Positions 2,330-64,000 are shown, counted from the stretch's first letter. The stretch is DNA of 64,000 bases from Dehalococcoidia bacterium (GCA_040882565.1 JBBEAZ010000024.1:105662-169661), one strand, 5' to 3'. Numbers and translations are program-made. Notes: a model not told the origin generated them from the letters alone.

Positions 2330-2860
2330 GCACCAAGCGCATTCAATCGACGTTTCACAGCGTTCAATCGACGCTTTCGGCGGTCGTGTGTATCTGCGCT
2401 TTCGTTGTCCGGCGGGAACGGTTCGTCCGGGTCACAGTCATCGGGTTTCGTCGCCTGTCTCGACTCTGGGACTGTAGCCACCCTCATACCATACTTGCAA
2501 TTGTGGATATTCGTGACACTTTGAGAGCAATCACTTCGGACAGAGAATTGCGGAAGATGAGAGCGAAGAACTGAGCACGTATTTCGTTGAGACCGACCAA
2601 TGGCAGCGCATGTTCAAAGGTGAGGTCGGGTGCCGTTCTTGTACCGAGATGCGCTCGATATGGTTCAAGGAGCCGCCGAGTAGTGCGCGTGTCGGCTGTT
2701 ACAACGGTCAGAGCTGGTGATAATCGCTGACATTTTGACATCTGTGGCACGTAACCGCCCGACAGCCCATGGGAGCTGGCGGGAATGGCGAAGGATGAGA
2801 TTGACAGCACTCCTACAGCAGGTGCATTGTAGGGCCCACTAGGACCTAATGGGAGGACAC

Positions 2861-4027
2861 ATGTCATCTCTTACGCTGTTGGCGGGAACGAGCAATCAGG
2901 CCCAAAGTGAACGCTGTCCTTGGTGTGACAACCCGATAACCCACCGGCAGTTCGAGGAAATAAGAGCGAGAATAGCCTCCGAAGAGCGGAAGCGAGCGGC
3001 GGACGCGGCTGCCCAGTTAGAGGCGGAGCTCAACAGAGAGCGCGCGGAGGCCAAGAAGGTCGTGGAGTCAGAACGGGCCCGTCTAGCGAAGGAAGCCGAC
3101 GCCAGGGTGACCGCTGAGGTTAAGTCGGCCCGCGAAGAAGCGGCCGAGGCAAGCCGTCTCCAACTCGCCGAGATGGAGAAGGCGGCCATAGCCGCCGAGG
3201 CGCGCGTCGACGCTCTTGAAGCGGGCCAAGAAGATATGATTGCGGCCCGGCTCAAGGAGCAACGGACCGCCCTAGAGAAGGACAAGATTGACGCTTTGAA
3301 CGCCGAAAGGGCGCAGCGCTCAAAGGACGAGCTGAAGTTCAAAGAGAAGGTCGACCTCCTCCAACGTCAGCTCGAGAAGAAGACAGCGGAAGACCTAGGT
3401 GAGGGCGCAGAGGTCGACCTCTTCGAAACGCTGAGGGAGGCGTTCCCCGAGGACCTCATCACGCGAGTCGGGAAAGGTAAGGAAGGCGCCGACATTTTGC
3501 ACAGGGTCCGGGACTCTGGCGGCCACCAGTGCGGTTCAATCGTCTACGATTCCAAGAATCGCACGGCTTGGCGCAACGAATACGTAACAAAGCTTCGGAA
3601 GGATCAACTTGTAGCGAAAGCGGAGCACGCGATTCTCACATCTCTCGCGTTCCCAGCCGGCGCGAGGCAGCTTCACTTGCAGGATAGCGTGGTTGTATGC
3701 AATCCCGCGCGAGCTCGGGCAATCGTTGAATTGCTTCGCCGACATATCGTACAGACCCACACCATGCGGCTCAGCGCAGAGGCACGAGCCGAGAAGACTG
3801 CGCATCTGTACGATTTCGTAACATCAGATCAATGCGCTCAACTCCTAGAACAAATCGAGGCGCGTGCCGCAGACATTCTGACCCTTGACGTCACTGACAA
3901 GAAAGCGCACGAGTCGACCTGGAAGAAGCGTGGCGAAATGGTGCGCGCGATTGAGCGTGCTCACTTGGACCTTTCCACGGAGATTGATCGCATCATTGGT
4001 GGGCAATCGATTCGGCTCGTGAAATAG
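2861..4027 (+). CDS. zinc-ribbon / long coiled-coil protein with a C-terminal DUF2130-like region (possible PD-(D/E)xK nuclease fold)
   Basis: ATG 2861 follows GGGAGG. The N-terminus has a CPWC zinc ribbon. About 200 aa of E/K/A-rich coiled coil follow. The C-terminus has the conserved block GKGKEGADILHRV ... GSIVYDSKN ... W ... KLRKDQ, read by eye as a D / D-x-K catalytic-like arrangement. The DUF2130 assignment is from memory of the family architecture and was not searched. Confidence 0.75.
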   Translation: MSSLTLLAGTSNQAQSERCPWCDNPITHRQFEEIRARIASEERKRAADAAAQLEAELNRERAEAKKVVESERARLAKEADARVTAEVKSAREEAAEASRLQLAEMEKAAIAAEARVDALEAGQEDMIAARLKEQRTALEKDKIDALNAERAQRSKDELKFKEKVDLLQRQLEKKTAEDLGEGAEVDLFETLREAFPEDLITRVGKGKEGADILHRVRDSGGHQCGSIVYDSKNRTAWRNEYVTKLRKDQLVAKAEHAILTSLAFPAGARQLHLQDSVVVCNPARARAIVELLRRHIVQTHTMRLSAEARAEKTAHLYDFVTSDQCAQLLEQIEARAADILTLDVTDKKAHESTWKKRGEMVRAIERAHLDLSTEIDRIIGGQSIRLVK

Positions 4028-4028
4028 C

Positions 4029-4982
4029 ATGGGGGATCCGAAGGTGGTTCGCCTTGCTCCCAATCTAGACGCGTTGCAGGAACGTCGACTGGGTCGCACT
4101 GTACTTCGTACCTATCGGGCTACTCTGGACATCGACGACCTCATTCCCAACGAACGCCAACCTAGGCTAGGACCGAAGGAAGACGACGAACTACAGCGCC
4201 AAATTGAGGCCAATGAAGGAGTCTTCGAGCCCTTGCTGGTCGAACCTCACCCTGATGTGCCAGACAAATTCAGAATAATTGACGGCGAGCGACGTTGGAC
4301 GAACTCACTCGCGCTTGTGCACCAGGGGAAAGAACAGTATCGACAGCTGCCCGTCGAGATAACAGATAGAACACTCTCTGACGATGAACGATTGAGGGCG
4401 TGGATTTACATTCATCGCCAGCGCAAAGAATGGGACGCCAAAGAGAAAGAGATGGTGGCCTACAGACTCGTACAGTTAATGGGACGAGCCAGCGCCGCCA
4501 GTATATTGGGCATCACCGTTAGAGAACTGGATAAGCTGGTCGACATATTCGAGCTGTCTGAGCGGTTTGACAATCTGCGGGACCCGAGCGCAGCTATCAC
4601 CTGGGCACGTGAACTGAATGGCGTAAGCAAGAAGCTTCTAACCCCATCGATCGTTGATGCCGTCGTAGGCAAAGTCGGCGACAAGCGCATAACGAACTCT
4701 AAGGATATTCGCAAACTTCGTGTGATCCTTCGCGATCCAGTAGCCAAGGCGAACTTCCTGTCGGATGAGGGTGATATTGATTCCGCGTTGCTGCGAATTG
4801 CCCCGGACGAATCCAGTAAGGACGAACGTGACATCCTCACTCAGCTCGACTTCGCGATGGAGTCCATCCGACGTGCTCCGTGGACTACGCTTGAACAACA
4901 CCGAGGAGACGACCGCTTGATTCGACGCATCGATGAAGCCGAGGAGCTCCTTAGGGCGCTACGCGAGAAGTTGTCGAGGTAG
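4029..4982 (+). CDS. ParB/Srx (ParB N-terminal CTPase / nuclease-like) domain protein with a central HTH
   Basis: The start lies 1 nt after the upstream stop (TAG 4025-4027, ATG 4029), suggesting translational coupling. EPLLVEP ... FRIIDGERRWTNS matches the ParB box II GERRxRA arginine-finger motif. AASILGITVRELDKLV is HTH-like. The C-terminal 130 aa are helical and of unknown function. The gene has about 52 % GC. Confidence 0.8.
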   Translation: MGDPKVVRLAPNLDALQERRLGRTVLRTYRATLDIDDLIPNERQPRLGPKEDDELQRQIEANEGVFEPLLVEPHPDVPDKFRIIDGERRWTNSLALVHQGKEQYRQLPVEITDRTLSDDERLRAWIYIHRQRKEWDAKEKEMVAYRLVQLMGRASAASILGITVRELDKLVDIFELSERFDNLRDPSAAITWARELNGVSKKLLTPSIVDAVVGKVGDKRITNSKDIRKLRVILRDPVAKANFLSDEGDIDSALLRIAPDESSKDERDILTQLDFAMESIRRAPWTTLEQHRGDDRLIRRIDEAEELLRALREKLSR

Positions 4983-39291: not shown

Positions 39292-39546
39292 GGCCTTCGC
39301 CGGCGACCATGCCCCCGCGTATGGCCGGTCAGGCGTTGCCCGCGTGCTGCAACTCGGGGGTTAAGTGTCTCCACCAAAAGGTCTTTGGCAGCCAAGGAGC
39401 GTTGGTCTCGCCGCTTGCCGCCCTGATCGCGTCATTGTCAGCGTGCTCGCGGAGTGTGGATCGAAATCCTTGCTCCAGCGTATGGAACCTCCGCTTCACG
39501 GCGGAACGCACATTCGGGCCACCGGGTGCCCGCTGGCTTCCTGTCG

Positions 39547-39771
39547 CTAGACAGGCAGTTGCTTCCTGGGCTGACAACGCGGCGGCATGGCAATGATAGC
39601 AATTGCTTCTCGTCCAGCTACTACTTCTGATAACCGCCCTTGAACCGTGGGCAGATCCGGTGAGGCTGCCTTGATGAAGTCGACGTCCCTGCAGAACTCC
39701 GCTCGGTAGTTGTCGAGCTTAGCAACCGACTCTTCAATTGTGCATTCAAGAGGACCCCAGACCCAACTCAT
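39547..39771 (-). CDS. cassette ORF 1, hypothetical small protein (74 aa)
   Basis: Low-GC ORF starting at Met 39771, directly downstream of repeat R1. Confidence 0.4.
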   Translation of the reverse strand: MSWVWGPLECTIEESVAKLDNYRAEFCRDVDFIKAASPDLPTVQGRLSEVVAGREAIAIIAMPPRCQPRKQLPV

Positions 39772-39786
39772 GTCAACATTGACTCC

Positions 39787-39865
39787 ACCACAAACCCGCC
39801 ACCGCCTTGCTCGATGGCGAACGCGCCATCCGTGGTCTGCCACGCCCCGCAAACTTGCGTCTTGT
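39787..39865 (+). repeat. cassette-array repeat R1 (slightly 5'-truncated copy)
   Basis: ACAAACCCGCCACCGCCTTGCTCGATGGCGAACGCGCCATCCGTGGTCTGCCACGCCCCGCAAACTTGCGTCTTG. Contains the hairpins GATGGCG/CGCCATC and CGCAA-ac-TTGCG. Confidence 0.8.
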
Positions 39866-39957
39866 CGCAGGTCTCGCGCCCCGTCGTGCGCTCCGTCTGC
39901 AACCGCGGCCGACGACGCGGTTCATGGCCGCGATTGTGGCCACGTTGGCTCGCACGT

Positions 39958-40350
39958 CTAGGCGATGGGCGTGCCGTGCGTGGCACTGCGATTGTAGGCA
40001 GCATCTCGCCTGCGCTTGGTCGAGAGGATCCCTCCCACGAGCCCATGTAAGAACGCGCCGACAGGAAAGACAATCCACGCAGCAACGAAGATGGGTCCCC
40101 CGAAAAAGAAAAGCGGCTCGGTGGCAAGAACGACCATGGTGGCCGATATTCCAAGCAGCGTCCCCACAGGCAAATTTCTGGTCGACGCGAGAAGAAGACC
40201 CACCAGCCAACCGCCAATCCAAGCTCCAACGAAAGGAACTTGGAGAAACCACGGCATTACAGCAATCACGAATGCTATCAACAATCCGATGATGCAGAAA
40301 AGTATGAACGTGCCCAGTCCGTATTGATGAGCCGCGCGAGCCATAATCAC
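39958..40350 (-). CDS. cassette ORF 2, four-TM membrane protein (130 aa)
   Basis: Hydrophobic segments FILFCIIGLLIAFVIAV, VGAWIGGWLVGLLLA, etc. Confidence 0.5.
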   Translation of the reverse strand: MIMARAAHQYGLGTFILFCIIGLLIAFVIAVMPWFLQVPFVGAWIGGWLVGLLLASTRNLPVGTLLGISATMVVLATEPLFFFGGPIFVAAWIVFPVGAFLHGLVGGILSTKRRRDAAYNRSATHGTPIA

Positions 40351-40380
40351 AGTTTACCTTGGGGCGGGTTTCGCCCCCCT

Positions 40381-40470
40381 ACTCGAACGCCCCATCCACG
40401 ACAAACCCGCCGCCTTGCTCGATGGCGAGCGTGCCATCCGTAGTCTGCCACGCCCCGCAAACTTGCGTCT
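40381..40470 (+). repeat. cassette-array repeat R2
   Basis: ACTCGAACGCCCCATCCACGACAAACCCGCCGCCTTGCTCGATGGCGAGCGTGCCATCCGTAGTCTGCCACGCCCCGCAAACTTGCGTCTCG. Confidence 0.8.
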
Positions 40471-40486
40471 CGTGCGCGCCACGCTG

Positions 40487-40732
40487 TCACACGACCGCCC
40501 ATACATTCGCTGCGACCGCCGCAGTTCCGACAAGCAAGAACGATCCCGGCATGATCCAGCGGGCATAGCGACGCCACAGGTCACGTCGTCGCTTCTGCTC
40601 GTCGGGAGGTAGCTGTGGGGGAATAATTGCAGGATTCTTCAGCGTGGAATCGGCCACGATGTCAAAGATGGGCTTCACAGCAGTTAGCAACCCGGCTGCG
40701 ATGAAGCATGCCCCCAATATCAGCATCACCAT
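40487..40732 (-). CDS. cassette ORF 3, two-TM small membrane protein (81 aa)
   Basis: MVMLILGACFIAAGLLTAV .. SFLLVGTAAVAANVWAVV. Confidence 0.45.
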   Translation of the reverse strand: MVMLILGACFIAAGLLTAVKPIFDIVADSTLKNPAIIPPQLPPDEQKRRRDLWRRYARWIMPGSFLLVGTAAVAANVWAVV

Positions 40733-40736
40733 TGCT

Positions 40737-40830
40737 TCCCCCTACTCACGGCCCACCCACGACAGACCCGCCACCGCCTTGCTCGATGGCGACCGTGCCA
40801 TCCGTAGTCTGCCACGCCGCGCAAAGCTTG
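40737..40830 (+). repeat. cassette-array repeat R3
   Basis: CTCACGGCCCACCCACGACAGACCCGCCACCGCCTTGCTCGATGGCGACCGTGCCATCCGTAGTCTGCCACGCCGCGCAAAGCTTGCG. Confidence 0.8.
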
Positions 40831-40839
40831 CGATCGGAT

Positions 40840-41328
40840 CTAGAACGGGCACTCAGGAACCTCGGTCAGTAGCCACGAACCGTCGTCCTGGCGTGCCACA
40901 CCCCACTCATAGGCAACCGTCTTCACATTGGCACCAGCCCTCGCGACGAACTGTCCGCGAACGACCGCCTCGCCATCGCGCCCCGGAGTGATCTCCGCGG
41001 GGTCGTCTAATTCGATGCCTGCACCCACGGGAGCACACCCAACGAAGGAGGAAAGCTGATCGTCCTCAATTCGGTCGTCAATTAGTGGCCGAAGCAAGCG
41101 CTCCGACGGAATGAAAGCCCTGTTCATCACATCGCTAACGAGAGAGTTGATGTCCTCTTCGTCCCTCTGAGAAAGCAAAGTGACACCCGGAGTTGCCGTT
41201 GGGTCAATCCGCACGGGCGACGTTTCCGTGAAGGTGTCGGAGAACTGAACGTCCGTTCCAGCGGACAGCAAATACAGCACGATCAACGCGACTACTATAG
41301 CTACAACCAGAAATACGATCTTTCTCAT
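40840..41328 (-). CDS. cassette ORF 4, secreted/membrane-anchored protein (about 162 aa)
   Basis: Start ATG 41328 (MRKIVFLVVAIVVALIVLYLL signal-anchor). Confidence 0.5.
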   Translation of the reverse strand: MRKIVFLVVAIVVALIVLYLLSAGTDVQFSDTFTETSPVRIDPTATPGVTLLSQRDEEDINSLVSDVMNRAFIPSERLLRPLIDDRIEDDQLSSFVGCAPVGAGIELDDPAEITPGRDGEAVVRGQFVARAGANVKTVAYEWGVARQDDGSWLLTEVPECPF

Positions 41329-41354
41329 GTGCAAATCAGAAAGTCCGACGAATC

Positions 41355-41455
41355 ACCCCTACTCGAACGGCCCATCCGCGACAAGCCCGCCGCCGGCTTG
41401 CTCGATGGCGAACGCCGCCATCCGTAGTCTGCCACGCCCCGCAAACTTGCGTCTC
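41355..41455 (+). repeat. cassette-array repeat R4
   Basis: CCCCTACTCGAACGGCCCATCCGCGACAAGCCCGCCGCCGGCTTGCTCGATGGCGAACGCCGCCATCCGTAGTCTGCCACGCCCCGCAAACTTGCGTCTCGG. Confidence 0.8.
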
Positions 41456-41785
41456 GGTGCGGGTCGCGGTTCCCGAACCCAGCGGCGGCCACCATCGTTG
41501 TCCTAGCAACCGTGCGCGCCTTCCATCCACAGCCTCGCCACTGGTCCGTCTTGATGTCAGCTCTCGTGTCGTTCGCCTTGGCGATGGCGCTGATGAGTTT
41601 CACGTACTTAGTGGTGCTCGCAGCAAACGAGTTTGCCAGCACGCCTACCTCGTGTGATCGGAGATGGGCGGGGCTTCCAGACCCGAGCACGAGCATCGCA
41701 TCCGAATATGTGAGGGAATTTAGCGAACTTGATAAGGCGGGCTGCAGTCCTCGCTCCTATTTCTACTGATTCAAACTGAACCATT

Positions 41786-42154
41786 TCACGATTCGCGGCC
41801 TTCGTTCTCCTTGGTCCATATCGCGTTCATCACCGCCATGCCGTGATCTGTGATGGCGAACTCGACAAACTCATGATCTGGTGACTCTGAGCCAGCCCAA
41901 TTATCCGGATTCGCGAGGACATCATTGATGTCTTCGGCGGGGATCGGTCGGGCGTCGGATGGGTCGTGTTTCGCAAAGACCAGCCTGACAAGTCCTTTGG
42001 CAAGGAGGCTCTGTAGCGTTGGTTCAGTTGATCCGCTGACCTCGACTCCAGTGGGAGAGAGCGTGATCGTGAAACTGGGGTTGAACTCCTGAAGGCCAAA
42101 CGAGTCGTCGTACGAAATTTCTAACAGGGCCCGTTCCTGATCCGTCAGATCCAT
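41786..42154 (-). CDS. cassette ORF 5, soluble hypothetical protein (about 122 aa)
   Basis: Start at Met 42154 (MDLTDQERALLEISYDD..). The upstream part of the listed ORF merely translates repeat R5. Confidence 0.45.
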   Translation of the reverse strand: MDLTDQERALLEISYDDSFGLQEFNPSFTITLSPTGVEVSGSTEPTLQSLLAKGLVRLVFAKHDPSDARPIPAEDINDVLANPDNWAGSESPDHEFVEFAITDHGMAVMNAIWTKENEGRES

Positions 42155-42198
42155 CACGCAGCGATTATAGACTTCACGCCGCGCGCGCCGACGGCTCG

Positions 42199-42290
42199 CC
42201 ACTCGACGGCCCACCCACGACAAACCCGCCACCGTCTTGCTCGATGGCGGACGTGCCATCCGTAGTCTGCCACGCCCCGCAAACTTCGCC
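42199..42290 (+). repeat. cassette-array repeat R5
   Basis: CCACTCGACGGCCCACCCACGACAAACCCGCCACCGTCTTGCTCGATGGCGGACGTGCCATCCGTAGTCTGCCACGCCCCGCAAACTTCGCC. Confidence 0.8.
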
Positions 42291-42312
42291 TCGTTGAGCG
42301 CGTTGGGTCGTC

Positions 42313-42760
42313 TCAAGCCAACGCGAAACGAGGGACGGCGTGGCCAACTTGGCGCAATCTAAGCAAGAGGTGGTCGCGGTTCGGGGGTTGCGCGTGCAAT
42401 GCGAATCGCAGCCTTCCGGGTCGGGAACCGCGATAACGCACTCCTTCAAGAGCGAGAATCGATAAGACCTCCATGAATTGCCGGAAGCGATCCCGGTCGG
42501 GAAGAAGCCTGTCCGCGTCCGAAACGAGTGCCACGTATTGGGAAGCTGGCAGCCAACTGAGATCCCTCATCCAATCTACGAGCGAATTCCAATTGTTGCT
42601 GACGGTCGGGAAATCGAATGCGAAGCTCCAAGCAGCCAGAAGGGCATCCTCGTCATCTCCGCTATCGCCAGGTACGGTTCGAACAACCAAGTCTGCTGCT
42701 GGCTGCGCCTCAAGAAAGCGATCCAGCTGACCGCGACTGCCCACCAAGACACTGAGCCAT
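42313..42760 (-). CDS. barstar-like (barnase-inhibitor family) putative immunity protein. Start codon uncertain
   Basis: LVVRTVPGDSGDDEDALLAAWSFAFDFPTVSNNWNSLVDWMRDLSWL follows the barstar pattern (.. F.FP.Y.G.N.DAL.D.L.DL ..). The N-terminal part of the listed 208-aa ORF overlaps a partial repeat copy. Confidence 0.5.
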
Positions 42761-42875
42761 GGCGCTTCAGGTGCGAGAAGCGTCGCCCAGCTGATCTTCG
42801 GGTCTTCTTGAACCGTCAATTGACTAGCAGTCCTGAGTGAATGCGTCACCCAATATACACGCGTGGGGCCATCCC

Positions 42876-42905
42876 TAGCCGGCCCGCCCATCCACGAAGG
42901 AAAGA
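42876..42905 (+). repeat. partial cassette-array repeat copy R6'
   Basis: GGCCCGCCCATCCACGAAGG resembles the CGGCCCATCCACGACAA block of R2-R5. Confidence 0.4.
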
Positions 42906-42949
42906 GCGGGCCCGATGGCCCGCTCTTAATGCCAAACACAGGGTCTGGT

Positions 42950-45487: not shown

Positions 45488-46138
45488 TTGAGTGGATCCC
45501 TCGATCACGTAACAACGATCCGCGGCCGCTTTGTCGAATTGCGGCCGATCAGCCGCGAGGACTATCCCACCTTATTCCGCTGGCGCTCGAGCTTCAGCAC
45601 GATCCACGCCCTTAACTTCCGGCGCAGTGTTTCCACGTACGAGGAGTTTGTCCGCGAGTTGGAACAGATGCTCCCGAACGTGATCCTTCTCCTGATCCGC
45701 GATCGCAAGACCGCCGCGCCAATTGGTTACACCCTCGGTTACAACATTCAGCCTTGGGACCGATACATGGGCGGCTCGATCTTCATCGAGCCGGGCCGCC
45801 GAATGCGCGTCTACGGCGGCGAAGCGCTTGTTCACTCCATCGATTTCTTTTTCTCCCTCTTCCCCATCAACAAGATCGTGGTTGAGCCATACGAATTCGC
45901 GACGACGCTCCGCGCGATGCTGGAAAGAATGGGCTTCGAGGAGTGCGGCGTCTACACCGACCATTACTGGCACGACGGCAAAAGTTGGGCGCTCCACGTC
46001 ATGGCGCTGCACCGGGAGCGGTGGGGGATAGAGCGAGAGAGGTACTTGAGTCTGATCGATACGGAAAACTTCCTCTCCAGTCATGACGAAAACGGCGCCC
46101 GTGGAGATGATCAGATCGGAAGTGAGGTCGCTATATGA
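45488..46138 (+). CDS. GNAT family acetyltransferase (RimJ/RimL-like)
   Basis: 216 aa. FVELRPISREDYPTLFRW ... acetyltransferase core. Confidence 0.7.
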   Translation: MSGSLDHVTTIRGRFVELRPISREDYPTLFRWRSSFSTIHALNFRRSVSTYEEFVRELEQMLPNVILLLIRDRKTAAPIGYTLGYNIQPWDRYMGGSIFIEPGRRMRVYGGEALVHSIDFFFSLFPINKIVVEPYEFATTLRAMLERMGFEECGVYTDHYWHDGKSWALHVMALHRERWGIERERYLSLIDTENFLSSHDENGARGDDQIGSEVAI

Positions 46139-46779
46139 TGAAGCAAGGGCTGGTCTTGGTCGGCGGAACCGCAGCGGTTGCCCTCCTGATCTTCCTAATC
46201 CTGACGGTGGGTGGAGTCGACTTGCGTGAAGAGGGAACCGCGCAGGAGTCGGGGGGATTCACCGGGGACTTACTAATTTGGAGTGGACGCCAGGAACTCG
46301 CAGTGTGCGTTGAGGTCGCTGGATCCGCGAAGAATGAACAACAGGTCGTCGCAAGCGAGGCCGTCGAATCCGTATCGCCAGCCTTGCTGATTGTGAGCCA
46401 GGACGAGGCATTCACGGCCTCCGAGCGACTTCAGACGGCGGCCAGTTCGGTCGTCGTCGAAGCAGAGTGCCCTGGAGATGCCCAACTCGATTGTCCAGCG
46501 TATCCGTACGACCCGCCAATATTGTGCCCGGACGGCTACGAGATAGTGAAGGAGCCAAGTAAGTACCGGGTCTTCGTCTACGTGGTTTCCGATGCAGATC
46601 TAGAGCAGATCCTTGGCGGCGCGACTCAGCGTCGGGGTGGCGGAGAACACTTGTGCAGCGGAGACAGTTGCTCGGAAGTCACGTCGGCGGTGTATGTGAG
46701 CGTTAACGAATTGAACGACACCCAAGTACTGGCTGGCATACTCCGTGAGGGACTTGGGTTTGGCGGTCACAGGGAGTGA
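46135..46779 (+). CDS. hypothetical secreted/membrane-anchored Cys-containing protein
   Basis: ATGA overlap with the GNAT stop. Signal-anchor LVLVGGTAAVALLIFLILTV. Confidence 0.55.
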   Translation: MMKQGLVLVGGTAAVALLIFLILTVGGVDLREEGTAQESGGFTGDLLIWSGRQELAVCVEVAGSAKNEQQVVASEAVESVSPALLIVSQDEAFTASERLQTAASSVVVEAECPGDAQLDCPAYPYDPPILCPDGYEIVKEPSKYRVFVYVVSDADLEQILGGATQRRGGGEHLCSGDSCSEVTSAVYVSVNELNDTQVLAGILREGLGFGGHRE

Positions 46780-47639
46780 CGCCACGGGAAACCTCCCACC
46801 AATGGCGCATCGTGCGCGTGGCTTTAAGCGCGGCCGTCGGTACCACGCTTGCTTTGGCAGCCCGGCTCGCGACCTCTGAACCCGGGAAAGCCAGTCACCC
46901 CTACTGGTTTCCAATCCAAGATCCTGGGCACATAGAGTCCATCAACTTTTCCGACATACCGGAAGCGGTCTGCGTCGATATCCAGACACAGCCGGCCATT
47001 GACTATCAGACCGCGTGGTACAGGATTGGGGATGCCCTCTACTACGCTGTACCTGACGGCGAGGATAGCTGGGACGGGCTTAACAACGACAAAATCAACT
47101 TCACATTTGCCCACCATAAAGAATATGAGATGCTCGGGCAGGGCTGCTTCGCCCCCCCGCCGGCCGACCCCTTGGTTTGGGAGATCCGAATCGCCGTTAA
47201 GGATGACGTGACGAGCAACTGCAACGGAAACTCTCGGGGATGCGCGTTTCGGAACGGCCCCATGTACGGGGACCCGTCGACTTCTGGGCACTCCTATGGC
47301 GAATACCAGAACAGTCAAATCTACATCGCGACAGGCGAGCTTCTAAGTGACTCCTACCTCTTCATAATAAATCATGAGGTCGGTCACGCGCTTGGTCTGG
47401 CCGACGGCGGGCCCGACGCGCCCGATGAACAGAACGCGAATGGTACTCAAATTCCCTTGCCATCCCAAACACAGAATCCATTGTCCTGCTCACCAATTAG
47501 TATCATGCATGTCTACGGTTGCGATGAGACGGACTGGCCGTCCGCAGTTGACAGGGCGGCCCTCGAGTTTCACATTCCCAACGGGCAACCGGCCGGCGGT
47601 GGGGGCAGTGGAGCCACCGCCAACAAGGGGTTCTTCTAG
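46776..47639 (+). CDS. secreted zinc metalloprotease (HExxH zincin)
   Basis: HEVGHALGLADGG is an HExxHxxGxxD-type motif. N-terminal signal-like region. Confidence 0.75.
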   Translation: MTPRETSHQWRIVRVALSAAVGTTLALAARLATSEPGKASHPYWFPIQDPGHIESINFSDIPEAVCVDIQTQPAIDYQTAWYRIGDALYYAVPDGEDSWDGLNNDKINFTFAHHKEYEMLGQGCFAPPPADPLVWEIRIAVKDDVTSNCNGNSRGCAFRNGPMYGDPSTSGHSYGEYQNSQIYIATGELLSDSYLFIINHEVGHALGLADGGPDAPDEQNANGTQIPLPSQTQNPLSCSPISIMHVYGCDETDWPSAVDRAALEFHIPNGQPAGGGGSGATANKGFF

Positions 47640-47643
47640 ATAC

Positions 47644-49908
47644 ATGAGAGTATTGATCGGCGCCCTCGCCGTAGTTGCCGCTCTTGCCGCTCTTACGCTA
47701 ATCACGTATCGCGAAGCCTTCGCCGCAGGCACATATGGGCCTACTCTAACCGTCGAACACTGCAACGGCCTCGCTGCCAACTTCCCCGCGAGCGGGACCT
47801 CAACTGATCCCGACCTTGCCGGCAACCCATCGTGCACCACCGGTGCCACTCCGCTTGCGTTGAACACCGCAACAAACTTGACGTTCAAGCAAGCGGTGCC
47901 CATTGGCCACATGAATCCTGGCACGGCTCTGTTCGTGACCGGGCCCGGTGACGATTACGTGGCGCCGGACGCATCAATTGCGAACGGAACCAAGGCTGGT
48001 GGCGTGACGGCCACCATGACCATCAGCGTGGCAAATGGCGCGTGCTCGACAGCGATCAACGTAGATTACATCCTCTACGAATCAACGACCAGCAACTCTG
48101 TGCTCATCGATCCGTTGGACCCAGGCACCGCCGACCACCTCTCGAACCTCGCCACGGATTCCGGCTTGGATGGATTCGCCGACTACAATTCGCCATTCCG
48201 CAACTCCAACCCGAGCTTTTACCCTCCCATCTTTGACCCCGATTTGGACGCCTTACTGGGGATCAACGGCCCAGTTGCGCCCTTGCTACCAATCGCACGT
48301 TATACGGGCATGTCGCGTGTCATTCCTACCGGGTCCGGGGAGTGGTCGATGCTTTCTGTTTTCGTCTTCAACAGCAGCGCTCTCGCCCCGTTCGCCGCCT
48401 ATGAACACAATATTCCTCATTCATTCTCCCGTCTTGGCCGTTCGCCGGCCGACGGGCGTGTCTACTTCGCGGTTTTTGACGATCCGCTCGAAGCAGCTTA
48501 TGGGCAGTCGAGGCTCCTCGAGACGTGCAGTCCGCTTACCACCACAGCGATGCTTCTCGGCACCCTACCGAATGCCGAGGTGCGCGCGCGAACGCCAACG
48601 ACTTCAGGGACGCGTGCGTATAGCGCGTGGAGCTACAGCGCCCGCAACGCCGACAGCGACACGCTGGACAATTGGCTCGACAGTTGCCCGCTAGTCGCCA
48701 ACGCCGGTACCGACGCAGACAACGATGGCATCGACGGCGCGTGCGATCCCACACCTTCCGTCAACACCGGCTTCGGCGACCACGACGGCGACGGCTTCAA
48801 CAACCGCGAAGACAATTGCCCGCTAGAGGCCAACTGGCCGCAGTCCTCGGAGCGCGAGGGCGAGATGTACTACATCACCACCGCCCCGGACGGCGGCCCC
48901 CGCGGCGACGGCATCGGCAACCACTGCGACCCGCACCAGTTCAACGGTTACTCGGAGGGCGATTTCATCGAAAGCTACGTCATGGTGCCCAAGTGCTTCG
49001 GCGGCACAGACGGGGACGGAGATCGCTACTGCTCTACGCAGGACCTCAACGACAGCAGCGCCTCGACGCCCGGCTACACGCTGAACAGGGGCCCCGACAC
49101 GGACGGCCTGCCCATCGGCGATGGTCATGGCTCAAACCTGGAGAAGTACGTCGGCACCGATCCGCTCAAGGCTTGCAACAAGACCACGGCAACTGATGAT
49201 GAATCAGCGGGCGCGGACGCCTGGCCGGTGGATCTCAACGACTCAGGGCACGTCAACATTACAGACATACTCGGGATGAAGCCGTTTATCGGTTCGGCGG
49301 TGCCGCCGAACCAGCGCTATGACATTGTCCCGAGCAAGACCATCAACATTCAGGACGTGCTCGCGATAAAGCCTTCAATCGGCTTGACGTGCGGGATTAC
49401 AACCAGGATCGATGCTGAAATTGCCTACGAGATTGCGAACGCAGCAACGTTGATCGGCTCCCCCGAGACGTGCACGGAGATGAACGTTGGCAACAGCATC
49501 CAAATTGATATCACAGCGAGCGCGATTCCGGCCTATACCGGTGGCCAAAACGGCCTCACCGGCTTCGAGTTCACGTTCAAGTACATCAGCAGCAAAATCA
49601 AAGTCACCGCGCTCGACGTCGACCTGCTTCTCAAGGCGAACCTGAACTCCAGTCTGCTCAGCATCGGCGACGCTCCGCCGAATACTGACGGCACGTTCTT
49701 CGTCTCAGTGGGCGATATTGGCACTGGGCAGCCGGAACAGGGCGCCGGCGTATTGGCCCGCATCACCGTCGAGGCGCTGGCCTCAGGCACTACAGCGGTG
49801 GAACTCACCAACATGGTCCTGACCGGAAGGACGGTGGGCGGCGGCGACTTCGAATACCCGGCGCGGGCCGTCAACGCGAACCTGGCCATCGGCACCACCT
49901 GCCCCTAG
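47644..49908 (+). CDS. large secreted protein with thrombospondin type-3-like Ca-binding repeats and C-terminal dockerin-like / beta-sandwich regions
   Basis: The start was set at ATG 47644 (MRVLIGALAVVAALAAL signal). The longer listed ORF from 47374 overlaps the previous gene in a different frame. The TSP3-like repeats are DADNDGIDGACD, DHDGDGFNNREDNC and GDGIGNHCD. Dockerin-like pairs are DLNDSGHVNITDILGMKPFIG and TINIQDVLAIKPSIG. Confidence 0.8.
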   Translation: MRVLIGALAVVAALAALTLITYREAFAAGTYGPTLTVEHCNGLAANFPASGTSTDPDLAGNPSCTTGATPLALNTATNLTFKQAVPIGHMNPGTALFVTGPGDDYVAPDASIANGTKAGGVTATMTISVANGACSTAINVDYILYESTTSNSVLIDPLDPGTADHLSNLATDSGLDGFADYNSPFRNSNPSFYPPIFDPDLDALLGINGPVAPLLPIARYTGMSRVIPTGSGEWSMLSVFVFNSSALAPFAAYEHNIPHSFSRLGRSPADGRVYFAVFDDPLEAAYGQSRLLETCSPLTTTAMLLGTLPNAEVRARTPTTSGTRAYSAWSYSARNADSDTLDNWLDSCPLVANAGTDADNDGIDGACDPTPSVNTGFGDHDGDGFNNREDNCPLEANWPQSSEREGEMYYITTAPDGGPRGDGIGNHCDPHQFNGYSEGDFIESYVMVPKCFGGTDGDGDRYCSTQDLNDSSASTPGYTLNRGPDTDGLPIGDGHGSNLEKYVGTDPLKACNKTTATDDESAGADAWPVDLNDSGHVNITDILGMKPFIGSAVPPNQRYDIVPSKTINIQDVLAIKPSIGLTCGITTRIDAEIAYEIANAATLIGSPETCTEMNVGNSIQIDITASAIPAYTGGQNGLTGFEFTFKYISSKIKVTALDVDLLLKANLNSSLLSIGDAPPNTDGTFFVSVGDIGTGQPEQGAGVLARITVEALASGTTAVELTNMVLTGRTVGGGDFEYPARAVNANLAIGTTCP

Positions 49909-63875: not shown

Positions 63876-64000
63876 GCGCGAGCCTGCTCCTTCGTCTTAC
63901 TTCTGGGAGGCCGCTCTGGGGCGTTGTATTGTCCCGCTTCCCGTCCTATGGATCCGCCGGATGATGTCCAATGGCTTAGCGGCATAATATAGACCAGCAT

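Follow-up and report, generated by a model that had tools for sequence, protein, structure and literature searches.

A stretch of 64,000 nucleotides from one uncultured Dehalococcoidia population (GCA_040882565.1, JBBEAZ010000024.1:105662-169661; hereafter the window) contains an island in which six small, mutually unrelated genes alternate with copies of a previously undescribed repeat of about 100 nt. The repeat is present in five full copies that share one orientation (39770-42302, minus strand), and the island, 3,605 bp in length (39292-42896), is a lineage-specific insertion of foreign composition. We read the island as a cassette-type array, possibly of orphan immunity genes, in which the repeats are the junctions between modules and perhaps also adaptors for expression, and give this reading a probability of about 0.4. 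A preceding interpretation made from the DNA sequence alone (the sequence-only reading) had proposed a modular repeat-plus-gene array of integron or immunity type. The modular array is borne out; it is horizontally acquired, given its absence from six relatives at the same site and the foreign GC content at third codon positions (GC3) of its genes. The integron interpretation did not survive closer analysis.

The repeat family

Searches with nhmmer delimit the five copies on the minus strand, R1 (39770-39874), R2 (40376-40478), R3 (40739-40837), R4 (41355-41466) and R5 (42204-42302), and agree with the five full repeats of one orientation described from the sequence alone. The start-to-start spacing from R1 to R5 is 608, 364, 619 and 839 bp (360-845 bp in the sequence-only reading). 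The copies differ by small changes, including a 3-nt deletion in R2 and a 1-nt insertion in the hairpin loop of R4, which makes this loop 7 nt long. Conservation is uneven: in a 73-nt core (AAGTTTGCG...GTCGTGG on the minus strand) about 4% of the alignment cells differ (about 96% alike), as against about 31-33% at the 5' and 3' edges; the sequence-only reading gave about 85-90% identity overall. R1 is conserved over its 5' ~75 nt and diverges at its 3' end after ...GGGTTTGTGGTGGA. When 3 mismatches are tolerated, a pattern of 36 nt from the core matches 4 of the 5 copies, R4 being missed owing to its 7-nt loop, and has no match elsewhere in the 64 kb (shuffle expectation, 0).

In three of five cases the repeat lies about 0-20 nt from the upstream stop codon, R3 beginning about 5 nt or less past the stop codon of open reading frame (ORF) 3, and the conserved part ends 8-45 nt before the next start codon, the intervening sequence being unrelated among the copies. 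At the 5' end, the similarity between R1 (39862-39883) and R4 (41454-41475) reaches about 25 nt further, and these are the two repeats that do not adjoin an upstream stop codon; the ancestral unit may therefore have been about 125 nt long.

The partial sixth repeat proposed earlier (R6p, TTCGTGGATGGGCGGGCCGGCTAGGGA; 42872-42898, minus strand) corresponds to the 3' end of the full copies and lies exactly at the left junction of the island, with 20 of 27 positions matching, and is the best match to this end outside the array (128 kb over both strands); the profile search with nhmmer gives no match there at E<=10. As a sixth copy, R6p is weak.

With a profile of the five copies, no additional one turned up in the window, in some 11 kb of added flank (about 75 kb in total) or in about 260 other loci; the search for extra copies suggested by the sequence-only reading, as far as these 75 kb of the genome go, gives none outside the array. 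A scan of genome contigs with a loose 18-nt pattern returned more than 120 matches, all of them due to chance as judged by local blastn and nhmmer. Two scans of metagenome contigs with 26 and 20 specified bases gave 0 and 1 match, respectively, the single match being a chance occurrence inside a transporter gene. Three scans of viral contigs yielded seed-length chance matches only, and blastn of the repeat against phage and plasmid records yielded nothing. Several IMG/VR loci (L181, L206, L221, L228 and about 10 others) show an identity of 22-24 nt to the repeat segment CGCCATCGAGCAAGGCGGTGGCGG that does not extend beyond it, probably a chance match to a conserved coding motif of related phages. 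Since exact-pattern scans are insensitive below about 90% identity, the absence of the repeat elsewhere is weak evidence. The array DNA is identical to the window in a second metagenome-assembled genome (MAG; L121) and in Logan contigs from two sequencing runs, and a third MAG encodes identical cassette proteins; as the same DNA is recovered in another assembly and in the Logan contigs, the array is not an assembly artefact. It is so far a single invariant locus.

A lineage-specific insertion of foreign composition

The island (39292-42896, minus strand) lies between the T-tract of the terminator of an ATPase gene and the stop codon of a convergent alpha/beta-hydrolase gene. The ATPase gene upstream (509 aa) belongs to the conserved core, and 468 homologs of it were found. 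Six relatives, whose ATPases are 70-78% identical, have the genes for ATP synthase, murA, mreB, rex, the ATPase, the convergent alpha/beta-hydrolase and a luciferase-like protein in the same order as here, and in all of them a terminator hairpin with its T-tract comes after the ATPase stop codon, and the hydrolase stop codon comes next, over 50-96 bp in total. Because in these relatives the terminator adjoins the hydrolase and the array is absent, the array is a lineage-specific insertion. The native bidirectional terminator hairpin is retained in the window (42897-42925, minus strand; GAGCGGGCC-ATCG-GGCCCGCTC followed by TTTCCTT), the orthologous hairpin and T-tract being found in 6 of 6 relatives. 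The T-tract ends at 42897, and the island starts at the adjoining base.

The island has a GC content of 0.55-0.60, compared with about 0.65 in the flanks, and GC3 is 0.56-0.66 in the six island ORFs and 0.85-0.95 in the flanking core genes. The island is thus compositionally foreign and internally homogeneous, which is compatible with an origin in one donor pool and perhaps with uptake in a single block. The segment past R1 matches the remainder of the island in its foreign composition. At the left end, the first bases of the island (CGTGGATGGGC...) resemble the 3' ~26 nt of the repeat, and R1 diverges at nearly the same point at which this left-end partial copy starts; taken together, the two sequences would fit a crossover near TTTGT/CGTGGA.

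An invariant palindrome with a variable loop

The sense (minus) strand of the core reads ...AAGTTTGCGGGGCGTGGCAGACTACGGATGGC-[loop]-GCCATCGAGCAAGGCGGTGGCGGGTTTGTCGTGG..., in which the 7-bp palindrome arms GGATGGC/GCCATCG are invariant (0 of 70 cells differ across the five copies), the loop of 6-7 nt is different in each copy (6/35 cells differ) and 14 of the 330 remaining core cells differ (Fisher p = 0.007). An invariant stem around a variable loop is unlike neutral, recently duplicated DNA, and this pattern indicates selection acting either on a hairpin or on a palindrome bound by a protein at two half-sites. Of the two conserved hairpins claimed before, the GATGGC(G)...(C)GCCATC stem is invariant in 5/5 copies; the second (CGCAA-ac-TTGCG) is intact in R1, R2 and R4 only, being altered in R3 and broken in R5. 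The GCCATCG arm can alternatively pair with a downstream CGGTGGC, which is followed by GGTTTGT, and a third GGATGG-like segment is found in the 3' part of the repeat. When folded as single-stranded DNA (ssDNA), the repeats form only a local stem of 6-9 bp, and their ends stay unpaired. No compensatory changes are seen among the five near-identical copies. No Rfam family matches the window at the gathering threshold, and at E<=10 none overlaps the repeats, which also contain no canonical intrinsic terminator.

Several other identities for the repeat were considered and rejected. An attachment-site repeat derived from tRNA or tmRNA is not indicated, the window having neither tRNA nor tmRNA genes and the insertion site being a terminator. 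A miniature inverted-repeat transposable element or another transposon was dismissed on the lack of terminal inverted repeats and target-site duplications at the ends of the repeats and of the island (by inspection). A conserved peptide encoded by the repeat is rejected because the 1-nt insertion in R4 shifts every frame.

A putative leader frame

A frame that begins at a conserved TTG in the repeat (TTGCGsGGCGTGGCAGAC) stays open for 32-42 codons, and its TGA overlaps or adjoins the next start codon in R2-R5 (4/4); in R1, the frame anchored at this TTG is fused to ORF 6. All these frames are on the minus strand. That of R5 (42154-42282) has 42 codons, with its TGA at 42156-42154 and the start of ORF 2 at a GTG (42157) or an ATG (42154). 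In R4 (41325-41444), even though the loop shifts the frame, the TGA at 41327-41325 and the ATG at 41328 form an ATGA overlap. The R3 frame (40726-40824) ends with a TGA at 40728-40726, next to an ATG at 40732 or 40726 (overlap of 1 or 7 nt), and that of R2 (40347-40460) with a TGA at 40349-40347, where the start is a GTG at 40350, giving a GTGA overlap, or an ATG at 40344. The GTGA/ATGA overlaps (-4) in R5, R4 and R2 depend on the start codon chosen. The arrangement of stop on start is kept despite indels of +1, -3, -2 and -1 nt among the copies. As an empirical null, 70 ordinary gene starts from this genome and its relatives were examined: at 19% (strict) to 24% (loose) of them, too, a frame of at least 30 open codons ends in a stop codon that overlaps the start or adjoins it. 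Shine-Dalgarno matches of at least 4 nt precede 2/6 cassette starts, as against 27/38 core genes. Translational coupling through the leader frame is suggestive only. In R5 (42282-42315) and R3 (40824-40842), the leader frame is also the frame of the upstream cassette ORF and opens right after its stop codon, the leader TTG lying 6-11 codons past this stop; R2 is not so arranged.

The cassette genes

The island encodes six small ORFs, all on the minus strand, one per interval, mutually unrelated and mostly ORFans. The earlier description of one unrelated small gene per interval, with four transmembrane (TM) segments, two TM segments, a signal anchor, a soluble product or a barstar-like product, agrees with hydropathy and Pfam. 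ORF 1 (42313-42891, minus strand; 192 aa as called, true start uncertain; GC3 0.59) encodes a barstar-family protein that matches Pfam PF01337 with 36.9 bits (cutoff 23.4; E 3.6e-9) over profile positions 4-78 of 96, and a tblastn search retrieves annotated barstar-family genes on Bacillus plasmids (E 4e-7). The search of the cassette ORFs against profile collections that had been proposed earlier thus assigned PF01337 to ORF 1 and no family to the other five, as ORFs 2-6 have no match in Pfam, NCBIfam, PADLOC or PHROGs. The immunity character suggested before is weakly supported, by the one barstar-family gene and by generic features of the others (small, membrane or exported, NTF2-like), and no toxin gene was found nearby.

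ORF 2 (41786-42157, minus strand; GC3 0.63) encodes a soluble ORFan of 122/123 aa without a homolog in a word-indexed search of 5.8 billion proteins; a single-sequence structure model was of poor quality and was not used. ORF 3 (40840-41334, minus strand) encodes a protein of 162/164 aa with one N-terminal TM segment (hydropathy), which forms a membrane anchor, and an NTF2-like domain. The same word-indexed search found no relative of ORF 3, and an exhaustive phmmer search found 16 distant homologs, the best of them 41-43% identical; those inspected are small lipoproteins ending in ...DGSWLL..PECPF. ORF 3 terminates exactly at this family-conserved C-terminus, and R3 follows directly. Its AF2 (AlphaFold) model has a pLDDT of 87, and the Foldseek matches of the model are NTF2-like folds; the predicted fold is a generic one. 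The two closest homologs of ORF 3 are not in arrays, as far as their short contigs show, and stand in ordinary high-GC contexts with different neighbours, which argues against a conserved pre-existing operon. ORF 4 (40487-40732, minus strand) encodes an 81-aa protein with two TM segments and ORF 5 (39958-40350, minus strand) a protein of 128/130 aa with four, both by hydropathy; no plasmid homologs were found for ORF 2 or ORF 5. ORF 6 (39547-39771, minus strand; GC3 0.56) encodes a soluble 74-aa ORFan that is in frame with the open frame through R1.

Between ORF 2 and R4, a stretch of about 320 nt (41467-41785) has no called gene and contains weak ORFs only, one of 71 aa on the minus strand and one on the plus strand of 85 aa with a single TM or hydrophobic segment; possibly the stretch is what is left of a decayed module. 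Its positions 41486-41515 form an inverted repeat of 30 nt, 80% complementary, with 40116-40145 inside the four-TM ORF 5.

Comparison with known systems and competing explanations

The closest precedent is the recombinase-associated acquired interbacterial defence (rAID-1) clusters of Bacteroidales (Ross et al. [quoted passage not shown] Like these clusters, the island is a co-directional array of small genes with a GC content skewed from that of the host and with repetitive intergenic sequences, apparently acquired horizontally. It differs from them in taxon (Dehalococcoidia instead of Bacteroidales), in that no XerD-like gene was found at the corresponding position, where the upstream gene is the conserved ATPase also present in relatives that lack the array, in that immunity homology is recognizable in 1 of 6 genes only, and in that its repeat has no known relative. 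A parallel for the leader frame is offered by ORF-11, ORF-17 and ORF-18 of attI1 and by the short ORFs that some attC sites contain, through which cassettes without an initiation region of their own are translated (PMC8876359). In both, a short non-functional ORF within the recombination or junction sequence stops at or close to the start of the cassette, to which it could bring ribosomes; the peptide encoded in the island is itself not conserved, R4 being frameshifted and still ending on the start codon. ORF-11 begins with an ATG behind a canonical Shine-Dalgarno sequence, whereas the frame in the island starts with TTG or GTG without a good Shine-Dalgarno sequence, and coupling is putative. 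Matus-Garcia et al. reportedly described, in 2012, putative mobile promoters as homologous upstream regions that precede non-homologous genes; the island likewise has one upstream sequence before unrelated genes, but its copies are clustered in one array instead of scattered and contain no detectable promoter-like hexamers.

The comparison with integrons, which the sequence-only reading had put forward, is largely negative. In an attC site, the reverse-complementary cores R'' (RYYYAAC) and R' (GTTRRRY) stand at the two ends, and one strand forms a long imperfect hairpin with an R box, an L box, extrahelical bases and a variable terminal loop; in a complete integron, the intI tyrosine recombinase gene, the attI site and the Pc promoter adjoin the array. 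A genuine cluster of attC sites lacking integron integrases (CALIN), with divergent attC sites and an IntI encoded elsewhere in the genome, would account for part of what is seen: in such clusters and in sedentary chromosomal integrons with homogeneous attC sites there is likewise one small, often ORFan, promoterless ORF per repeat, all co-oriented, and the repeats stand close after stop codons and are highly similar within an array, so that even the lack of a neighbouring integrase is in line with the definition. Yet a pattern scan that covered both strands of the entire island gave no pair of RYYYAAC and GTTRRRY at a distance of 40-160 nt and none at a conserved position of the repeat, in agreement with the earlier remark that canonical attC cores could not be seen. 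The repeat has neither complementary ends nor an extended imperfect palindrome, the ssDNA folds are mostly no better than those of shuffled sequences, and the conserved stem is limited to 7 bp, so that the repeat lacks the cores, the L boxes and the long hairpin of attC alike. Neither was any IntI found among the ORFs scanned, and the statement that the array has no integrase holds for these and for the called genes of the 11-kb flank. By its cores and folding, the repeat is not an attC site, and the probability left for a divergent CALIN is close to negligible.

Other explanations give the repeats no part in the assembly of the array. Mycobacterial interspersed repetitive units (MIRUs; Supply et al. 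1997, as summarised in PMC12548453) are intercistronic repeats whose internal ORF is coupled to the downstream gene at -4 nt, and they resemble the repeat of the island in length (about 50-100 nt), in location between co-oriented genes, in fixed orientation and perhaps in the overlap of the internal stop codon with the start (-4), which in the island depends on the start codons chosen. A selfish element of this kind, or one like repetitive extragenic palindromic (REP) sequences, might have inserted in one orientation into the gaps of an already assembled cluster, in the donor or in this genome, in which case the genes would not be cassettes, the repeats would be younger than the genes and an internal ORF coupled to the start would keep the insertion harmless. 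This explanation, the main rival of the cassette-type reading, is rather unlikely in our view, while still to be taken seriously. It draws on the strict occurrence of the repeat between co-oriented genes in one orientation, on the GTGA/ATGA ends of its ORF in R5, R4 and R2 and on the lack of a recombinase nearby among the ORFs scanned. It is at odds with the confinement of the repeat to a single foreign array, no copy being found outside it within about 75 kb, and with its occurrence as one copy per site without tandem units of variable number, where MIRUs are dispersed over many loci and often tandem. Furthermore, the conserved part of the repeat, unlike a MIRU, stops 8-45 nt short of the start codons with unrelated sequence between, which means that insertion was not precisely at start codons; the genes of the array are foreign, unrelated and mostly ORFans, and the neighbours of cassette homologs differ, so that there is no sign of a pre-existing operon; and the coupling statistic is weak. 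A purely cis-regulatory module copied in front of each gene, either an operator for a dimeric regulator or a hairpin, processing or attenuation signal in the 5' untranslated region of the RNA, would explain why the repeat is always upstream of a gene on the sense strand, and why invariant 7-bp arms flank a hypervariable spacer of 6-7 nt, as hairpins and two-half-site operators typically show. The two pairings open to GCCATCG, with the upstream CGGATGGC or with the downstream CGGTGGC that precedes GGTTTGT, also resemble a choice between terminator and anti-terminator. We nevertheless consider a role of this kind alone distinctly unlikely, given the lack of an Rfam family at E<=10 and of compensatory changes, RNA folds close to those of shuffled sequences, and the lack of a sigma-70-like promoter or a canonical terminator in the repeats; it also leaves unexplained why six unrelated foreign genes stand together and why repeats adjoin upstream stop codons.

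Under the cassette-type reading, the islet of 3.6 kb would have been acquired horizontally and inserted directly after the transcription terminator of the ATPase gene in one Dehalococcoidia population. At the DNA level, the repeats would represent shared sequence at which gene modules were joined, either by an unlinked site-specific recombinase that recognizes the invariant palindrome CGGATGGC-n6/7-GCCATCG or by plain homologous recombination between repeat copies. At the RNA level, the repeat could act as a common adaptor through which foreign ORFs with poor ribosome-binding sites are expressed from one transcript, the TTG/GTG frame that ends on the next start codon providing coupling by termination and reinitiation. 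The gene content would then be a stockpile of orphan protection or immunity genes (a barstar RNase inhibitor, four-TM and two-TM proteins, an anchored exported NTF2-like protein and soluble ORFans). In its most specific form, this reading makes the repeat the recombination site of a new, non-integron cassette system in Chloroflexota, with the invariant palindrome, a crossover near ...TTTGT/CGTGGA..., a remote or host Xer-type recombinase that captures single small genes, and a built-in adaptor for translational coupling; we hold this full version to be improbable.

A number of results weigh against the cassette-type reading. No recombinase or integrase was found among about 40 window ORFs (recombinase-sized or island ORFs only) or among the called genes of the extra flank, and no second array with this repeat was found in the collections scanned. 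The population assemblies encode identical cassette proteins, with identical array DNA where compared, and give no evidence of mobility. The loop differs in each copy, which would prevent the copies from recombining with one another if a tyrosine recombinase used the loop as its overlap region. Local alignment of the island's right end to the repeat scores no higher than background, and this, together with the weakness of R6p and the foreign segment past R1, means that a clean attL/attR structure is not established. The folds are unremarkable, with z from +0.08 to -2.4 for ssDNA (both strands, five copies; mostly at the level of shuffles) and of only -0.5 to -1.0 for sense-strand RNA, and no sigma-70-like promoter was detected in the repeats. 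With a null of 19-24% per gene, the 4/4 leader frames correspond to p ~0.002-0.02 for an observation made post hoc, and the leader TTG/GTG has no good Shine-Dalgarno sequence. Finally, no toxin partner for the barstar-family protein was found nearby, and immunity function is weakly supported, for one gene of six, the barstar-family gene being the only one with homology to known or predicted toxin-immunity proteins.

To our knowledge, no system that stockpiles single-gene cassettes is well understood apart from integrons, and the rAID-1 clusters have hinted at other pairs of recombinase and site that stockpile immunity genes. If the island is a cassette-like array with a different junction repeat, it would add a poorly studied, uncultured phylum to those with modular gene capture, and do so with a type of site that is invisible to tools based on attC; a junction carrying a translational-coupling frame would show how foreign ORFs become expressible on arrival. 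If instead the repeat is MIRU-like, such behaviour would occur outside mycobacteria. At present, the array is a well-defined lead rather than a demonstrated system.

Genomic neighbourhood

A second lineage-specific insertion (45488-49908) lies between rex and mreB and encodes a GNAT acetyltransferase, two proteins without a family and a surface protein of 754-844 aa with TSP3 calcium-binding repeats and dockerin/cohesin-like segments (the latter by inspection). This large protein was considered as a toxin partner for the barstar-family protein and rejected, being a surface protein and not an RNase. At the same site, the relatives have only a gene of 66-79 aa, in some of them together with a 167-aa or a pentapeptide-repeat gene; as insertions are found on both sides of the rex-ATPase pair, both sides are variable spots. 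Within the ATP synthase operon, a 155-aa 23S_rRNA_IVP gene (PF05635; 54475-54942, minus strand) stands between the gamma and beta genes, which follow each other directly in the relatives examined. A stretch of low GC content (2849-4982; 0.55-0.59), with genes for a DUF2130 protein and, after it, a ParB_N-domain protein, is possibly a further acquired module. Some 4-10 kb past window position 64000 (L261:1-5900), there is a type I-C CRISPR-Cas locus (Csd1/Cas8c, Cas7, Cas4, Cas1, Cas2); none of the 26 CRISPR spacers (0/26) matches the window or the island. The CRISPR array has 27 repeats (GTTGCACTCTCCCCACGGGGAGGGTGAGGATTGAAAC), and the locus is followed by a gene for a Fic-domain protein.

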